Positions 37,018 to 46,660 of a stretch of 64,000 nt of DNA are shown in pieces. Under the pieces are notes generated by a model that ran no database searches, was not told the DNA's origin, and worked only from the letters and a program-made list of their open reading frames with translations. Within the stretch, counting starts at the first letter, position 1; each line of letters begins with the position of its first letter. This stretch comes from an uncultured Clostridia bacterium. GTDB lineage: Bacteria > Bacillota > Clostridia > Christensenellales > CAG-1252. The DNA is taken from contig CALYRM010000002.1 of assembly GCA_945482995.1 (NCBI GenBank), positions 11,355-75,354 on the forward strand, given 5' to 3'. The position numbers and the translations under genes are program-made.

Positions 37018-37683
37018 ATGGCAAAAAAAGAAGATTCTCCTATGACTCCCAAAAAACTGTTTATTATAATAGTTGAAATAATTTTGGTGTTTATGTTAGC
37101 ACTTGTTATAGTAGGCTTATTGCAACAGTTCGTAATAGCGCCCATCCGAGTTTCGGGTAGCAGTATGGCTCCTACAATAAGGGACAGTGGCGATAAAGTT
37201 TATGTATATAGGAAAGCAAAAGAATATAATATCGGAGATGTGATAGTATTTTATAAACCGATACAAGGCGAAAATGACGAAAGCCTTAACCCGTCGAGTA
37301 AAAAAACTTCTTTTACCGACTTTTTAAGAGCATTACCGATAGTTGGATCGAGAATTCACGCAAATGAAGCGGATAACGAAGAAACCGGCGGATATAAAGC
37401 TATAATCAAAAGAATAGTCGCTTGTCCCGGCGACACCGTGAGCTTCGTAAACGGTGAGCTTTATGTGAATGGGGACAAAGAAACACGCTTTGCTTATAAA
37501 TTTAATACAGTAGGCGTTGGTGATAACTATCAACACACCATGCAAAAAGACGAATATTTTGTTATGGGCGATAATAGAGGCGATAGTATAGATAGCGAAG
37601 ACTATGGACCGATACATCTAAATATGATTTACGGCAAAGCTGTGCTATTAATCACCGAAGGCGAACCAAAAGTAGACTTCTAA
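37018..37683 (+). CDS. lepB: signal peptidase I
   Basis: VSGSSMAPTI (catalytic Ser box), KRIVACPGD, GDNRGDSIDS. Confidence 0.88.
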   Translation: MAKKEDSPMTPKKLFIIIVEIILVFMLALVIVGLLQQFVIAPIRVSGSSMAPTIRDSGDKVYVYRKAKEYNIGDVIVFYKPIQGENDESLNPSSKKTSFTDFLRALPIVGSRIHANEADNEETGGYKAIIKRIVACPGDTVSFVNGELYVNGDKETRFAYKFNTVGVGDNYQHTMQKDEYFVMGDNRGDSIDSEDYGPIHLNMIYGKAVLLITEGEPKVDF

Positions 37684-39773: not shown

Positions 39774-40650
39774 TGTCATTTCGACCGAAGTGGAGAAATC
39801 TCATCCGCTTTGTCATTTCGACCGAAGTGGAGAAATCTAATCAAATCGTCATTCCGAGCCATCCAATTCGTCATTTCGACCGAAGTGGAGAAATCTCATC
39901 CTTGTTTGTCATTTCGACCGCAGTGGAGAAATCTCATCCTTGTTTGTCATTTCGACCGTAGTGGAGAAATCTCATCCGCTTTGTCATTCCGATCCATCCG
40001 CTTTGTCATTCCGATCCATCCAATTCGTCATTTCGACCGAAGTGGAGAAATCTAATCCTTGTTTGTCATTTCGACCGAAGTGGAGAAATCTCGTCCGCTT
40101 TGTCATTCCGATCCATCCAATTCGTCATTCCGAGCGAAGTCGAGGAATCTCATCCGCTTAGTCATTCCGAGCCATCCGTTTTGTCATTCTGACCAATACA
40201 AATGTCATTCCGAGCGCAGTCGAGGAATCTCATCCTTGTTCGTCATGTCGACCGAAGTGGAGAAATCTCCCTACTAGCACAAAAACCCTGTGAAACAGAC
40301 AAACAATCGTAATGTATAATTACACATTATTAAAAAGGTTCTATTTTTATTGAACGCTTAAGTTTTATTCACAAGAATGCTTTTGTACCCCATTTTAGAG
40401 ATCCCTCCACGTTGGTCGGGATGACTTAGCCCACCGTCATTCCGAGCCATCCAATTCGTCATTCCGAGCGAAGTGGAGAAATCTCATCCACATCGTCATT
40501 CTGAGCCATCCAATTCGTCATTCCGACCAACACAAACGTCATTTCGACCGAAGTGGAGAAATCTCATCCTTATTCCGTCATTCCGAGCAAAGTCGAGGAA
40601 TCTCATCCTTATTCCGTCATTCCGACCGAAGTCGAGGGATAACAAATTAC
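39774..40650 (+). repeat. two mosaic arrays of the same modules, separated by a ~95-bp element
   Basis: 16 modules are readable in 39774-40270 and about 8 more in 40383-40645. Inverted modules and a terminal module (ctccctactagcac) lie at the junctions. Confidence 0.9.
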
Positions 40651-40653
40651 AAT

Positions 40654-40701
40654 CAAAAAGTGGTCTGCCGTCGGGTTAACCCCAAAAACGTAGACCACTT
40701 A
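40654..40701 (-). terminator. compound hairpin with a T-run on the minus strand, downstream of the sipW operon
   Basis: aagtggtct...agaccactt outer stem with an inner GGGTTAACCC palindrome. The minus strand continues with tttttg. Confidence 0.45.
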
Positions 40702-40907: not shown

Positions 40908-41408
40908 TTACGTCATTGAAACTACTGTTTGTCCCCAGCTATAATTACTAGCATTTACACAAACATATATTAACTCACCTGATGTAGGAGCAACCAAATT
41001 ATCACCAGATGCTGTAACACCACCTTCGCCATCTCCATATTTGTCTACTGCTGCGATTCCATTGCTCTTTTCAATCTGATACCATGTTATATCTCCAACT
41101 CCATTGTACCTAACGCACTTGAATTGCGTACCGGCAGGAATTTCACCATACCATTCAGCCAAATTGCCAGAGCCTTGAGGTAGAGTAGTCATTTTAATTG
41201 AATTTTCATTCACAGACCAACCACCAAGCTGTTCACCTACAATATAATAACCACCGACTTCAGGTTCCCATGAAATTATCGGCTCGGCACTAAAACTAAT
41301 TTCAAGTCGATCAGCGTTTACAACATAAAGAGCATACGCACCGCTAATTAGCGAAACGCAAATCATAAAAGTAAATATTAGGATAAATGCTTTTATAGTT
41401 TTCTTCAT
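40908..41408 (-). CDS. secreted protein with a SipW-type-looking signal peptide and a CBM-like beta-sandwich domain
   Basis: N-terminus MKKTIKAFILIFTFMICVSLISGAYALY. The domain W.PEVGGYYIVGE..GGW...FKCV..W...YVCVN..W is shared with the 42540..43400 protein. Confidence 0.55.
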   Translation of the reverse strand: MKKTIKAFILIFTFMICVSLISGAYALYVVNADRLEISFSAEPIISWEPEVGGYYIVGEQLGGWSVNENSIKMTTLPQGSGNLAEWYGEIPAGTQFKCVRYNGVGDITWYQIEKSNGIAAVDKYGDGEGGVTASGDNLVAPTSGELIYVCVNASNYSWGQTVVSMT

Positions 41409-41446
41409 TGCTCTTTATATTTTGTCCTTTATTGCAGTTATTGTTT

Positions 41447-41780
41447 TGATTAGATTCTTCGACAAGCTCAGAATGACATTAGTAGGTTAGTCGTTCTCTA
41501 CCGATTTTGTTGACTCTTCCGCTGCGTTATCGTCACAAGGATGAGATTCTTCGACAAGCTCAGAATGACTATGCAGATGAGATTTCTCCACTTCGGTCGA
41601 AATGACGATTTGATTAGATTCTTCGACAGGCTCAGAATGACAAGGCGGATTAGATTCCTCGACTTCGCTCGGAATGACATTTGGATTTAGATCCTTACGA
41701 CTACGCTTCGCTTCGCTCAGGATGACATTATGGCTCGGAATGACGATGTGGCGAGATTCTTCGGCTTCGCTCAAACTGAC
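41447..41780 (-). repeat. array of modular repeats overlapping the 3' end of sipW
   Basis: gattcttcgacaagctcagaatgac, gatttctccacttcggtcgaaatgac, gattcctcgacttcgctcggaatgac, and others. Confidence 0.85.
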
Positions 41781-42464
41781 GGTATTTGATTGGTCGGGTT
41801 CTTTTTGTGCTTCGTTTTGTTTCTTATTGGAAGTCTTAGCGGACTCGTTCTCGGGTTTCTTTTTAAGGTAATTCAATATTAGCGAAGTAATGGCTATAAT
41901 TGTCAAGCATGCAATCAATGCAATTATTCCATAACTGCTTTTGAAAAATTTGACTACTACTCCAAACTGTCCCATTGAGAAACAATAAATACCTGTGATA
42001 TCCTCTATTTTTTTTGGTGAATCACTTTTGGGTGCAGCGTCACCACGAGTAACGTACAATTTTTCGCCTGTAACTGCATCATACTTTATTTCAACCACAC
42101 GATGAATGACCGTTTCGTTTCCTATCTTAAAGGTTACTATATCATATACGTCAGGCTCTTCGCCGTCCTTTAACCGTCTTGTAAACACAAAATCATTGAT
42201 TTTAAATTGTTCGTCGTGTCCCTCTAAAAATTCCTTGTAATCTTCATATTTAAAGGACATACTTCCCGATTTAACAATCATTCCTCTATAACCAAAGAAC
42301 GGATAAATATCCTTTCCCGAAATCTTTTCTACCAAGGAAAAAATCAATACGGCAATAAAGATAACCATAATGAGATAGAATATTACATTTAGTATAATTC
42401 TACCCACACTTTTTTTCTTTTTATTTTCCGATTTTTTATTCCCGTATTGACTTTGTTTTTCCAT
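41487..42464 (-). CDS. sipW: SipW-type (archaeal/ER-type) signal peptidase I with a repeat-encoded C-terminal tail
   Basis: N-terminal TM; KSGSMSF (Ser box), VIHRVV (His box), TRGDAAPKSD; a second TM. The last ~90 aa are translated from repeat modules. Confidence 0.7.
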   Translation of the reverse strand: MEKQSQYGNKKSENKKKKSVGRIILNVIFYLIMVIFIAVLIFSLVEKISGKDIYPFFGYRGMIVKSGSMSFKYEDYKEFLEGHDEQFKINDFVFTRRLKDGEEPDVYDIVTFKIGNETVIHRVVEIKYDAVTGEKLYVTRGDAAPKSDSPKKIEDITGIYCFSMGQFGVVVKFFKSSYGIIALIACLTIIAITSLILNYLKKKPENESAKTSNKKQNEAQKEPDQSNTVSLSEAEESRHIVIPSHNVILSEAKRSRKDLNPNVIPSEVEESNPPCHSEPVEESNQIVISTEVEKSHLHSHSELVEESHPCDDNAAEESTKSVEND

Positions 42465-42484
42465 TTTCTTTAAAATAAGTGGTT

Positions 42485-42510
42485 TACGGTCGGGTTTTAC
42501 CCCGACCGTA
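42485..42510 (-). promoter_or_regulatory. intercistronic GC-rich hairpin between the 286-aa gene and sipW
   Basis: tacggtcggg-ttttac-cccgaccgta, a perfect 10-bp stem with no clear T-run. Confidence 0.5.
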
Positions 42511-42539
42511 TCTCACAAATTGAGTTTTAGTTAGTTTGA

Positions 42540-43400
42540 TTATTTACCAATAGTGCTTACAGGTTGAATCCAAAGTTGATTATCTTTATTAACGCAAATG
42601 AAATAATCATCGTCAGCGTTTGGTGATATATTGTTTCGATCTTCAGGAAGTATCGTAACACCCTTTGATTTTGGATCAAATGTTGCAGCATCCCAATTGA
42701 TTCCCCCATCTCTTGTCCACTGAACAACTTTAAACTTTTCGCCTTGCTTCAAATGAACGCTTTCAATGGCAGCTTTGTCAGTTTCACCTGATGACATCTT
42801 TTTATCAAGCAAAATCGCATCTTTATTTACACCCCAAGCAGAATGTTCACCTACGATATAATAGCCACCCTCTACAGGTGCCCAATCAATAGCTTCCCAA
42901 GTAACTGAAATGCTTGCAGATTTATTGGAATTTTGTGCAAACGTAGCATCGCCTGCATCAACTAAAGTTGCTGTTAGAGTAAGAACTTCTGGTAATTGAT
43001 CTAACGGCAAAGTCAACGAAATTACATAGTTTGAAGCGTTAAGATTTTTTGGTGTTTCACCATCTAAATAACTAGCTGTTAATAAAATAGCATCTTTTAG
43101 TGCTCCATCAAGTGTAACCGTCAATTGACCACTCAAACCTGCCAATGCCTCGGTATTGGGAGTATTAACGTTAAGGGTGATTTCTTGAGTTGCTGTTGGT
43201 GTAGCAGGAGACAATTTAGCACCATTAAAATTAAGTTTTCCTGTACTTCCACCAACTGATGTCGTCAAGGTAACTGCTTGTTCGCTACCGAAAGTAATCT
43301 CAAGCTTCTCAGCGTCTTTATGATAAAGTGCGAAACAACCGCCTACTACTGCAAGACAAAGTATAACCGATAAAATAATAACAATCAATTTCTTAGTCAT
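42540..43400 (-). CDS. secreted protein: Ig-like N-terminal half plus a CBM-like C-terminal domain
   Basis: N-terminus MTKKLIVIILSVILCLAVVGGCFALY. The C-terminal domain is homologous to the 40908..41408 protein. Confidence 0.55.
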   Translation of the reverse strand: MTKKLIVIILSVILCLAVVGGCFALYHKDAEKLEITFGSEQAVTLTTSVGGSTGKLNFNGAKLSPATPTATQEITLNVNTPNTEALAGLSGQLTVTLDGALKDAILLTASYLDGETPKNLNASNYVISLTLPLDQLPEVLTLTATLVDAGDATFAQNSNKSASISVTWEAIDWAPVEGGYYIVGEHSAWGVNKDAILLDKKMSSGETDKAAIESVHLKQGEKFKVVQWTRDGGINWDAATFDPKSKGVTILPEDRNNISPNADDDYFICVNKDNQLWIQPVSTIGK

Positions 43401-43415
43401 AGTTCACCTCCACGA

Positions 43416-43922
43416 TTAAGCAGCCTTAGCAAACGTACATGTTAATATGCCGTTTGTTGCGTTTACTTGTTGTTCTGTTGCATCTGCACTGAGTAATAAT
43501 TTAACATAAACCGTTTGACCTGCTGTGATTCCTGTCATTGTGATAGTTTTGCCAGAAACGGCTACGCCTTCAATTGGAGTATTACCTTCACGATCGGAAC
43601 AAAGAGTAATTGTTACGTTTTCGATGCTTTTACCCTCACCATTTGCTCTTGCATCGATTGTCAATGTAGCTGTGCCCCAATTTGGTGTACCTTCAGCACC
43701 CGTTTGGTTAGACTCAACGCCCAATACAATAGGAAGAACTTGAGCAACACCTTTAGTTAAAGTGATTGCCGTACCTCTTGAAGAGTTCATTGTCAAATAC
43801 AAGTATGTATCTGTACCAATAGAACCATTTTGTTCAGGTGCATCATAAACTGCGATTGCCAATACCGAACCGATAACTGCAACACAGAGAACCATGCAAA
43901 TTAATACAATAAGTTTTTTCAT
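43416..43922 (-). CDS. small secreted beta-rich protein (candidate major subunit or first gene of the sipW operon)
   Basis: N-terminus MKKLIVLICMVLCVAVIGSVLAIAVY. Thr/Gly/Ala-rich beta-strand pattern. RBS ggaggt upstream. Confidence 0.55.
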   Translation of the reverse strand: MKKLIVLICMVLCVAVIGSVLAIAVYDAPEQNGSIGTDTYLYLTMNSSRGTAITLTKGVAQVLPIVLGVESNQTGAEGTPNWGTATLTIDARANGEGKSIENVTITLCSDREGNTPIEGVAVSGKTITMTGITAGQTVYVKLLLSADATEQQVNATNGILTCTFAKAA

Positions 43923-44172
43923 TATTTAGTTCTACCTCCTAAAAATTTTATACAAATAAAAATGGTCAACAAAAAGAATGCAAAACTCTTCTTAGCTGAC
44001 AGTAATATTTTATACTCTTTCTAATTGTATAGTAAATATAAAAAATGCATTTTTAATCAAAATTTAATACTGAAACCATACAAAAGTCGGCATAATAACC
44101 TTTGACTTATGCTTGTTTGATAAGGCAAACAGTTATATTTTCGTCAATAGTAATAGCGTTATTTTGATAGAT

Positions 44173-44832
44173 TCAAAGCGTTAGTCCGAGATATTTTTCA
44201 AAATGCTCAAAAAATTCATATACTTTGGTAGCAGGGTCATTGTTTGCTGGAGTTTTTTTGTCATCAAGTAGCGATTTAGCATTTTCAACTGCTTTTAGTA
44301 GATTACCGCCTTTTGCTAAAACTTTATCAAAAATATCTTTATCATTTTTTTCATAATGCTCCTGCAAATATTTTTTAAGTTTTTGTATGTACGCTTTCCG
44401 ACTTATTGAGGCTGTTAAATTAATAAAATTCAATAAGAGCCACAACTCGAAACATTGATTTGACCATAGTGCATGATATTTCGTTTGTTCGTTAGTCGTA
44501 TTCTGAATCTTATTTATCGCATTATTAAAATTTTCATGCGAAAAATCATCTTTATCAAACAGGACCCACACATGGTCTATTTTGCAGTTATTTTTCTTTT
44601 CGATAGTTCGCGTCTTAACTAAAACATTGTTTGCCATAGTCATTGGATCGACAGCATCTACTTCGATATAAAATTTTAAAAGCATATTTTTTTCTTGGTT
44701 TTTGAAAAATTTTACAACCCCGTCAAAATAGTTCTTTTCTGTTTCTGCACCACAACAGACAATAAGATGACTTGTTGCAATAGGAATTTTTGCAGAGCTT
44801 CTGTCTCCGTACCAATTCTTTCCCTTGCCCAT
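44173..44832 (-). CDS. RloB-like protein (AbiLii-like, TOPRIM-related)
   Basis: HLIVCCGAETEKNYF matches the RloB signature ivcEGekTEpnYF. Starts 3 nt after the AAA gene's stop. Confidence 0.7.
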   Translation of the reverse strand: MGKGKNWYGDRSSAKIPIATSHLIVCCGAETEKNYFDGVVKFFKNQEKNMLLKFYIEVDAVDPMTMANNVLVKTRTIEKKNNCKIDHVWVLFDKDDFSHENFNNAINKIQNTTNEQTKYHALWSNQCFELWLLLNFINLTASISRKAYIQKLKKYLQEHYEKNDKDIFDKVLAKGGNLLKAVENAKSLLDDKKTPANNDPATKVYEFFEHFEKYLGLTL

Positions 44833-44835
44833 AAC

Positions 44836-46077
44836 CTAAATCTCCCAATGCTTGATTTTAATTAAATAGGGGTCAGCACCATAGCGACCTTCAATATATT
44901 GTTTGTTGTACGCAGCATCATTACGCACAAGTTCACCAGACTCTGTACGAATATCTATAAGCGAATAAAAAACAGAATACTCTTTTTCACACATTGCCAT
45001 AAACCAAATTTCATCACGTCTAAACACATCTCTTGTCATAGTCGTTAAATCGTGAGAGGTAAAAATTAGTTGTGCGCCTTTTGTATTTGTAACCTTGTTT
45101 GTAAATAACTCTATGATAAACTTTAACAATTGCGGGTGCATTTTTGCGTCAAGTTCATCTATTATAACTGTTCGACCTTCAGCCAAGGCAACAACAAATA
45201 CCGGTAGAAGTCCGAAAACCTTTTTTGTACCATTTGACTCTTCACGTAAATCTAACTCATATGATAAACCGCCTACTTTATGTTTTGTTGTTATTTTAAT
45301 TGCACTCTGGTTAGGTTTTACGTCAACCTTTTCCGCACGATAAGACACTATATTTAAGTCCATACGACGTAACAAATCAAGCGTCATCTCCTTTATTTTA
45401 TTTGAGCGTGCATCATTTTCCAATTCTAATTGCAAAATAAAACTGAGCAATAATTCATCTTGAAAGGGTACATTGTAATCTACGCAAAATGTAGACATAA
45501 ACCAATGAATAAGCTTTGAGATTTGTTCAACCTTATAAACCATTCCTATCCAAGACAAAACCGGCATACCATCTGCGATATTTCCGGCGAGCTTAACTTC
45601 ACTTTTTATACTATCGCCTAAAACAATGTCACTGCCTTGTCGAGTAAAGATTTCCGTTATTCTCTGTTTACCAACTTTTCTGATATATAGCGATTCATCA
45701 ACGATTTTGTTATTTAATATAGTAATATAGTATTTATATTCTATTTCGTCAATTTCAACGAAAATTTCAAATTCGGTTGGCATATTAGCACACTCTGAAT
45801 CGAATTTAAAAGGAACGATGTTAACACCTACAACAGGTTCAATCTGATTCATTTCACCAACAACATTAAAATAACGAGATATCAAAACTTTTAATGCGAA
45901 AAGAGCTTTTAATAATGTACTTTTTCCACCACCATTAGGTCCGTAAATAGCGGCAATAGGCAACAATCTATTATCTATAAGAGATTCTTTATGTTCCGAT
46001 AAAGCAATCGAGCGCATATCAAGTGTTGCTTTCTCTTTAATACACTGGAAATTTGTTACAGAAAATTGTACAAGCAT
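44836..46077 (-). CDS. AAA_21/COG1106-type ATPase (AbiLi/RloA-like)
   Basis: N-terminal FSVTNFQCIK, Walker A GPNGGGKST, Walker B VIIDELDAKMHP, FTSHD. Confidence 0.75.
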   Translation of the reverse strand: MLVQFSVTNFQCIKEKATLDMRSIALSEHKESLIDNRLLPIAAIYGPNGGGKSTLLKALFALKVLISRYFNVVGEMNQIEPVVGVNIVPFKFDSECANMPTEFEIFVEIDEIEYKYYITILNNKIVDESLYIRKVGKQRITEIFTRQGSDIVLGDSIKSEVKLAGNIADGMPVLSWIGMVYKVEQISKLIHWFMSTFCVDYNVPFQDELLLSFILQLELENDARSNKIKEMTLDLLRRMDLNIVSYRAEKVDVKPNQSAIKITTKHKVGGLSYELDLREESNGTKKVFGLLPVFVVALAEGRTVIIDELDAKMHPQLLKFIIELFTNKVTNTKGAQLIFTSHDLTTMTRDVFRRDEIWFMAMCEKEYSVFYSLIDIRTESGELVRNDAAYNKQYIEGRYGADPYLIKIKHWEI

Positions 46078-46239
46078 AACTCACCTCCATATTAAGTATT
46101 ACAATTATAGCCTATTTTATGCCTAAAATCAATATTTTGCGAGACTTTTTCTCGTAAATTAATGATTTTTCATCGACTTTTTTTAAAATTTAATGTTTTT
46201 GTGGATTTTCAATATCTATCCGACTGTTTGTATGCCTCA

Positions 46240-46660
46240 CAAAGAGTCGGTGCTAATGAGGTCCCTCGAACAACGCTTTCAGGATGACAGCAGAGCTGTC
46301 AATTCACCCTCCACGTTGGTCGGAATGACAAAGTGGATGAGATTCCTCGACTTCGTTGCACTTCGCTCGGAATGACATTTTTGGTCGGAATGACGAATTG
46401 GATGGCTCGGAATGACATTTTTGGTCGGAATGACAAAGCGGATGAGATGTCTCGACTACGCTCGACATGACAAAGCGGATGAGATGTCTCGACTTCGTTG
46501 CACAACGCTTAAGAATGACAATTAGTTGTAATGGCTGTATATCTGCTTCGCAAGAAGTCGGTGCTAGTAGGGAGATGTCTCGACTACGCTCGACATGACG
46601 GAACAAGGATAGTTCCTTTGGCTGAGCTCAGGATGACAGCCCTACAGCTGTCACTTCACC
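46240..46660 (-). repeat. composite repeat array: modules, GACAGC palindromes and terminal modules
   Basis: Runs from gagtcggtgctaatgaggtccctcgaac...aggatgacagcagagctgtcaattcaccc to ttagttgtaatggctgtatatctgc...gtgctagtagggag and ggatgacagccctacagctgtcacttcacc. Confidence 0.85.

Follow-up and report, generated by a model that had tools for sequence, protein, structure and literature searches.

Attachment to dietary starch by Gram-positive gut anaerobes has, to our knowledge, been explained for only a few model organisms, and the means described include amylosomes, sortase-anchored amylases and the Sus-like lipoproteins of Bacteroides. A cassette of four minus-strand genes from an uncultured Clostridia bacterium raises the question of whether there is a further route. 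It lies in a 64-kb window (the whole stretch of DNA analysed here, C2:11355-75354 of a 2.12-Mb, 94%-complete metagenome-assembled genome) and encodes a SipW-like signal peptidase together with three small proteins, here called g1, g2 and g4. What are these proteins, why is a peptidase encoded among them, and what could they do together? The explanation preferred here, in which we have somewhat more confidence than doubt, is that the cassette encodes SipW-processed starch-binding surface proteins and forms a self-contained secretion and display set whose members could plausibly be joined by strand complementation. The set would probably be a kit for the display of starch-binding modules, like TasA in kind but unrelated to it in sequence, and its subunits may form a fibre.

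The make-up of the three proteins can be read from their homologies. The genes follow one another as g1 (43416-43922, 168 aa), g2 (42540-43400, 286 aa), the peptidase gene, hereafter sipW (41487-42464, 325 aa), and g4 (40908-41408, 166 aa). A sequence-only reading of the window had described them as tightly packed; the coordinates, strand and lengths it gave are right, but the gaps measure 15 nt (g1-g2), 75 nt (g2-sipW) and 78 nt (sipW-g4), and g1 and g2 are the only truly abutting pair. Its observation that the 286-aa and 166-aa proteins share a C-terminal domain is borne out by BLASTP (E 9e-13, 27% identity), and a separate match (E 3e-10) connects the signal and N-terminal regions of the same two proteins. 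What it missed is that residues 2-177 of g2 are homologous to the entire g1 (hhalign 96%, E 2.6e-9). From the BLASTP and profile-profile homologies, three related architectures follow: signal-D1 for g1, signal-Nte-D1-D2 for g2 and signal-Nte-D2 for g4, where Nte is a short N-terminal strand and D1 and D2 are domains. In g2 the signal spans aa 1-24 and Nte approximately aa 25-40, D1 extends to about aa 167 and D2 covers aa 168-286 (nt 42543-42899). In g4, which is without D1, the signal (aa 1-26) is followed by Nte and by D2 at about aa 40-166 (nt 40911-41291). No name or curated family was found for g1, g2, g4 or their 39 close homologues, and none of the 23 homologues of g1 is named or has a Pfam domain. 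For one homologue, PF26120 is a precomputed assignment.

D1 is a new beta-sandwich family without a detectable relationship to TasA or camelysin, and g1, which carries it alone, is the candidate major or scaffold subunit. The AlphaFold2 (AF2) model of g1 (pLDDT 79, above 85 over most of the core) has a helix at aa 2-26 and then a nine-strand sandwich; that of g2 (pLDDT 71.5) has a helix at aa 3-20. A Foldseek comparison of D1 with the Protein Data Bank (PDB) returned the ColG collagen-binding/PPC domain first (E 1e-4, template modelling (TM) score about 0.53 by target), followed by CUB, GOLD, PliG, FlhE and the C-terminal domain of Clostridium perfringens enterotoxin (CPE). The same search with both domains of g2 is uninformative on D2, since its compact matches (CUB, ColG-CBD, PliG) repeat those of D1. 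A variant of the D1 arrangement occurs on contig G010:C6 (L018:6325-12657), where the gene next to a g1-like one encodes 1942 aa, of which the first ~180 residues are g2-like (signal, strand and D1) and the remainder carries metallo-beta-lactamase domains; the module can apparently carry very large cargo.

The cassette is conserved as a unit. When the four proteins were compared by BLAST with the open reading frames (ORFs) of ten related loci, the order g1-g2-sipW-g4 was found in nine related genomes (L009-L017), in all of which the fourth gene carries the same signal class. Two more distant loci emerged from an exhaustive search: a further assembly with the same four-gene order (L022) and a short metagenome contig that shows g1-g2-sipW and then ends (L023). 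The neighbourhood that the sequence-only reading had proposed as a check is thus upheld: sipW adjoins these genes wherever a related locus extends far enough for gene order to be read, save the tenth locus, G010:C6, where no sipW was found adjacent to the g1-like gene. This synteny spans three genera, and homologues keep open reading frames down to 24-35% identity. Within the family, 10 of the 28 species genomes carry D1 (9 of the 14 of high quality), and none turned up in 16 other families of the order. A related-locus search of genome contigs gave no locus with the g2 alignment and a single one with the g1 alignment.

The reason for a co-encoded peptidase could lie in the signal peptides. 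Orthologues of g2 and g4 have a K-rich n-region, an h-region of 16-18 residues and the sequence (V/I)-G-(G/T/S)-(C/A)-(F/Y)-A↓L-Y-x-x-(N/D)-A, with the arrow at the predicted cleavage site; an alternating beta-strand (LEITF, IDITF or VVSIS, for example) comes next. Those of g1 have G-(S/T/G)-(A/V)-(L/I)-A↓(I/V/L)-x-x-(Y/F/N)-(D/N/S), and in the related cassette loci compared, each of the three gene families conserves small residues at -3 and -1 where its h-region ends. The N-terminal sequences quoted in the sequence-only reading are correct. Its view of these signals as unlike AxA holds for the unusual aromatic residues at P2 and P2' of the g2/g4 sites, which recall TasA (TWA↓AF), but the sites obey the small -3/-1 rule (C-F-A, A-Y-A, A-I-A or V-L-A) and are therefore AxA-like. 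The TasA site is cleaved by SipW and poorly by LepB, which aromatic residues at P2/P2' hinder (PMC10269814). Similarly, TasA-like proteins of other Clostridia show GG-(A)T-x-A-(W/Y)-F-T-D, the same architecture as the g2/g4 sites with their Gly-rich h-region end, a pattern that g1 fits less well. In the forms searched, the cleavage-region motif is matched by g1, g2 and g4 only among the 5071 ORFs of the genome.

The peptidase itself is a SipW-like archaeal/endoplasmic reticulum (ER)-type signal peptidase I (TIGR02228, E 1.8e-13, 50.7 bits, slightly short of the cut-off), with a core at about aa 1-215 and a tail at about aa 235-325 (nt 41487-41762). Against the Bacillus SipW equivalog NF046067, it scores 38.5 bits where the cut-off is 190 bits, and on its sequence it is SipW-like without being orthologous to the Bacillus enzyme. 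Among 12 aligned homologues, one of them a SipW beside TasA-like genes in another Clostridia genome (L024), S68 (SGSM), H121-R122, G141-D142 and D148 are invariant, giving a Ser-His arrangement with no Lys dyad; Ser-His(-Asp) is the catalytic set of ER-type peptidases (PMC10269814). The enzyme has two hydrophobic helices, one N-terminal and one C-terminal, and an insertion of ~18 residues after the Ser motif is common to cassette peptidases. Their C-terminal tails are variable and acidic/basic, with total lengths of 208-378 aa. In the window, the last ~90 sipW codons are translated copies of an interspersed repeat (VIPSEVEES / VISTEVEKS type). The length of this tail varies between strains, for totals of 325 aa in this genome and 365 aa in L019, and some relatives (208 aa) are without it. 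A search of solved structures with the SipW sequence gave no match.

Since the genome also encodes two LepB-type peptidases outside the cassette, the SipW-like enzyme appears to be an extra, dedicated one. One of the LepB-type enzymes (TIGR02227, 108 bits) is at 37081-37653 on the plus strand, ~3.3 kb past the end of g4 and beyond a comEC-like gene. Outside the window, a second SipW-type peptidase was found on contig C3, within the region C3:27592-42702 (L045:593-15703); it is 316 aa long, scores 82.3 bits with TIGR02228, above the cut-off, and adjoins a membrane protein of 607 aa that matches AAA_5 weakly. Near it are three proteins with a different common motif, GF(A/S)AW(L/M/V)I, and also a giant protein of 2577 aa in which MBG_2 and Flg_new repeats occur. 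As such, the genome would have two private sets of peptidase and substrates, each with its own signal motif.

What D2 binds is suggested by remote relatives and by genomic context. With Pfam models, g4 matches CBM_20 weakly (E 0.0019, 18.4 bits, under the 23.3 cut-off), and SusF_SusE matches four g2 homologues (E 0.002-0.05, 14-19 bits, under 27.5). The D2 family profile aligns with SusF (PDB 4fe9, residues 149-245) at E 0.025, and both start with GYYIVG-x-x-x-W. The exhaustive HMMER search with the g2/g4 profile yielded 138 cluster representatives, about 45 of them full-length g2-like; the other matches have D2 alone, often repeated, within proteins of 300-2500 aa. Among 57 D2-only proteins, the carbohydrate-binding module (CBM) CBM26 occurs in 15, dockerin in 6, CBM_20 in 3, and GH13, pullulanase X25 and SusF_SusE in 2 each. 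In P0087, the D2 match (residues 133-201, E 7e-10) overlaps a Pfam CBM_20 domain (25.4 bits, above 23.3), and in P0161 the match (residues 142-209, E 2e-4) overlaps SusF_SusE (39.4 bits, above 27.5). Through such intermediates, D2 is linked by sequence homology to CBM20 and SusE/SusF.

The position of g4 adds further context. In the sister species G004/G005, the product of the gene next after sipW has this signal and N-terminal strand too, and then three bona fide CBM26 modules (E 1e-40, 5e-42), which from these comparisons is the strongest context evidence that D2 would be starch-binding-like; other relatives have weak CBM26, X25 or Big_3 matches at this position. The resemblance to CBMs that the sequence-only reading had called weak is thereby strengthened, by the sub-threshold CBM_20/SusF matches, by remote relatives that pass Pfam cut-offs over the same residues and by the triple CBM26 of the sister species. 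The idea that D2 is itself a divergent CBM26 was rejected, the hhalign value against the CBM26-bearing g4 proteins of G004/G005 being 2%, and by its profile D2 is a different module occupying the same slot. Moreover, in a strain variant of g2 (P0009), D2 is 62% identical to a g4-type D2 (P0036), compared with 27% between g2 and g4 in the window. The g4-type D2 within P0009 suggests that binding modules are exchanged between the g2 and g4 slots by recombination.

Could the proteins also be joined to one another? The 14 residues after L-Y were compared for g2 against g4. When both come from one genome, pairs have 5.8/14 identical residues and a BLOSUM62 score of 23.2, against 3.0/14 and 9.1 for pairs from different genomes, and orthologues between genomes have 3.6/14 (permutation p ~5e-5 for the likeness within genomes). 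Each genome thus keeps its two strands alike, as identity within genomes exceeds that between them, and either one common partner (the D1 groove or the peptidase) or gene conversion could be responsible. By analogy, the co-variation would be compatible with donor-strand complementation as in TasA/TapA, BsaA and AbpA, of which it is not proof.

Taken together, these observations can be assembled into a mechanism. The three pre-proteins would be exported via Sec, and their signal peptides would probably be removed by the co-encoded SipW-like Ser-His peptidase, not by the two LepB-type enzymes; we infer SipW-like cleavage from the synteny, from a motif confined to these genes and from the precedent of TasA. 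With its D1 domain, g1 may be the bulk or scaffold subunit of a cell-associated fibre or complex, onto which g2 and g4 could dock by their common short beta-strand in the manner of the N-terminal donor strand of TasA, TapA, BsaA and archaeal Abp filaments. In such an assembly, g2 would be both strand acceptor (D1) and glycan binder (D2). As g4 consists of strand and D2 only, it would donate but could not accept a strand, and may be a donor-only cap. D2, as a putative CBM20/SusE-F-like starch (alpha-glucan) binding module, would be presented by both g2 and g4.

Several results weigh against this explanation. D2 itself falls under every Pfam cut-off, the TIGR02228 score of the peptidase (50.7 bits) is just below the 51.85 cut-off, and the likeness of Nte within genomes could come from gene conversion instead of a common binding partner. 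The N-terminus of g1 is unlike the g2/g4 strand, and its cleavage site is ambiguous (after A22 or A24), because the small-x-small sequence conserved in its orthologues, (A/V)-(L/I)-A, lies two residues earlier. TIGR04088, a 34-position hidden Markov model (HMM) for SipW-dependent signals with a cut-off of 19 bits, was unmatched by the three proteins (E <= 1) and by the six-frame translated genome (E <= 10), and control genomes did match. Furthermore, PF12389 (Peptidase_M73) is absent from the three proteins and from the genome, and hhalign against 8 Clostridia M73/TasA-like proteins gave 11% for g1 and 37% for g2, with only the signal and first strands aligned. Foldseek ranks generic sandwiches first for D1, places AbpA (7ueg) at rank 40 (E 0.023, TM 0.32) and has TasA outside the top 50.

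From the M73, hhalign and Foldseek outcomes, D1 is best placed in a family of its own, with TasA-superfamily membership unsupported. The TasA/camelysin relationship or fold entertained in the sequence-only reading was not found by Pfam, profile-profile comparison or fold search, and such membership of D1 is rejected by these together with a PDB sequence search. Its SipW-dependent signal class fares differently: in the forms searched, the motif is confined to these three ORFs, but TIGR04088 is unmatched genome-wide. That interpretation is thus partly supported, in that a peptidase-centred, CBM-bearing secreted set holds and membership of the TasA type and of the TIGR04088 class does not. Literature searches on SipW with carbohydrate-binding modules and on TIGR04088 returned nothing relevant.

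The main rival accepts the starch-binding proteins and leaves out the polymer. According to this alternative, which is a serious possibility that we nevertheless consider somewhat improbable, g1, g2 and g4 are independent secreted or membrane-proximal proteins, D1 serves as a spacer or as a further domain for binding, Nte is a recognition element for the peptidase on the P' side, and the SipW-type enzyme is needed only as aromatic-flanked sites are poor LepB substrates. In structure, D1 is indeed most like binding domains (the collagen-binding/PPC domain of ColG, CUB and the C-terminal domain of CPE), searches for homology to the TasA superfamily were negative, and aromatic P2' sites are handled poorly by LepB (PMC10269814). 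A conserved post-cleavage segment that co-evolves with its peptidase could likewise explain the co-variation within genomes. However, an unpolymerised set leaves unexplained why a D1-only g1 with no binding module always comes first and has the best ribosome-binding site, and why g1 is without the strand common to g2 and g4. Moreover, there is no cell-wall anchor or retention domain in the three proteins, and enzyme-free starch-binding modules would then be of little obvious use.

Very improbable, by comparison, is that the signals are uncleaved anchors which hold the proteins in the membrane, with the SipW-like gene serving other substrates or a non-proteolytic role. AF2 does predict one long helix for the N-terminal segment (aa 2-26 in g1, aa 3-20 in g2), and the tail of Bacillus SipW is reported to have a second, non-proteolytic role. 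The three gene families nevertheless all conserve small -3/-1 residues where the h-region ends, in the related loci compared; sipW keeps strict synteny and invariant catalytic residues, and the motif is in no other ORF of the genome. That unrelated small ORFs lie together by chance, or are mis-called, has in its favour only that g1, g2 and g4 are unannotated in public sources, and this negligible possibility is refuted by the conserved synteny across three genera, in addition to homologues with open frames down to 24-35% identity and confident AF2 models.

If the cassette is a display set, it would add a route by which starch-binding modules without catalytic activity are exported, and probably also displayed, via a private SipW-type peptidase and a new scaffold domain. 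It defines two protein families, D1 and D2, that have no Pfam or NCBIfam model, and would widen the rule that a dedicated ER-type peptidase accompanies its cognate substrates, so as to take in substrates without detectable TasA homology. A tentative and, in our judgement, unlikely extension is that Christensenellaceae-like gut Clostridia have an unrecognised surface fibre made without sortase or chaperone, in which D1 forms the shaft, the SipW-type peptidase exposes the N-terminal strand of each subunit, and interchangeable starch-binding tips (D2, CBM26 and others) are carried on that strand. If true, Gram-positive gut bacteria would hold starch granules in a manner that is new, and the fibre would be independent of the TasA superfamily in origin or diverged beyond recognition. 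With only three substrates and their peptidase, the set is compact enough for tests in a laboratory host.

Signals for expression can also be read around the genes. A sigma-70-like promoter candidate (TTTACT-18-TAAAAT, 9/12 consensus matches in a consensus scan) lies 5' of g1 at 44007-44036 on the minus strand, and is weak evidence because such sites are no commoner in the region than in shuffled sequence. A good Shine-Dalgarno sequence precedes both g1 and g2, with a strong AGGAGG before g1. Between g2 and sipW, an RNA hairpin with a 10-bp GC-rich stem (42485-42510, minus strand) could be a partial terminator, an attenuator or a stabiliser. The 81-nt stretch has a minimum free energy of -23.3 kcal/mol (z = -4.7), and 0/200 shuffles fold equally well; it has no clean U-tract and was not called by a terminator scan. 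As a speculation, this hairpin may reduce read-through into sipW and g4 and so favour the structural subunits.

The gap between sipW and g4 contains one module of the interspersed hairpin repeat of the genome. Dense arrays of that repeat lie on either side of the region, at 39800-40700 and 46200-46600, and generate many spurious ORFs (SFRPKWRNL / VISTEVEKS type). Directly upstream of the cassette, at 44173-46077 on the minus strand, is an unrelated pair encoding RloB (PF13707, E 1e-33) and AAA_21 (E 5e-33); it is of an AbiL/OLD-like defence type and has the same position in other strains (L019-L021). The genome has five GH13 matches, which are unremarkable and were not used as evidence.

How does the cassette compare with known systems? 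As the sequence-only reading had stated, its composition differs from both tapA-sipW-tasA and sipW-bsaABC. The B. subtilis tapA-sipW-tasA operon, which makes donor-strand biofilm fibres, has a similarly special substrate c-region with aromatic residues flanking the site (TWA↓AF in TasA, (F/Y)A↓LY here), a small major protein and accessory proteins with a common N-terminal strand, and a peptidase with two membrane helices. In contrast, D1 is not M73/TasA by HMM, profile-profile or clear fold match, and TIGR04088 is unmatched. The cassette's accessory proteins bear starch-binding-type modules and not a TapA domain, the gene order differs, and polymerisation would be a feature carried over by analogy.

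The sipW-bsaA-bsaB-bsaC locus of C. perfringens (PMC11580942) is likewise a Clostridia sipW operon with several secreted substrates. BsaA fibres are locked by isopeptide bonds, and in the published model a disordered N-terminal strand inserts into the next subunit and SipW acts in assembly (PMC11580942); the post-signal segment of the cassette's g2 and g4 has a similarly conserved Asn/Asp. BsaA and BsaB are remote TasA homologues, whereas D1 is not detectably one, and there is no von Willebrand A protein in the cassette. More generally, TasA-superfamily loci combine a filament subunit, a dedicated signal peptidase I (SPase I) and variable tip or minor components (bioRxiv 10.64898/2026.01.04.697558; PMC9245690; PMC11580942). 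In AbpX/AbpA/Tafi-type archaeal and bacterial loci (bioRxiv 10.64898/2026.01.04.697558; PMC9245690), a filament gene also stands beside a TIGR02228-type SPase I, and the lineage-variable folds of the "tip and minor filament components" match the variable g4 position (D2, CBM26, Big_3 and others). However, the AbpX-linked peptidase is described with ten transmembrane helices where the cassette's has two, and the cassette is without an SPI-accessory protein.

From the side of starch binding, SusE/SusF of Bacteroides share with D2 the GYYIVG-x-x-x-W start and are, similarly, non-catalytic proteins of binding modules only. The CBM26/dockerin proteins of resistant-starch degraders are comparable in that remote relatives of D2 occur in proteins containing CBM26, dockerin and GH13. 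Unlike both of these groups, the cassette proteins are not lipoproteins and carry neither dockerin nor sortase signal, and their display would depend on the SipW-type peptidase and D1.

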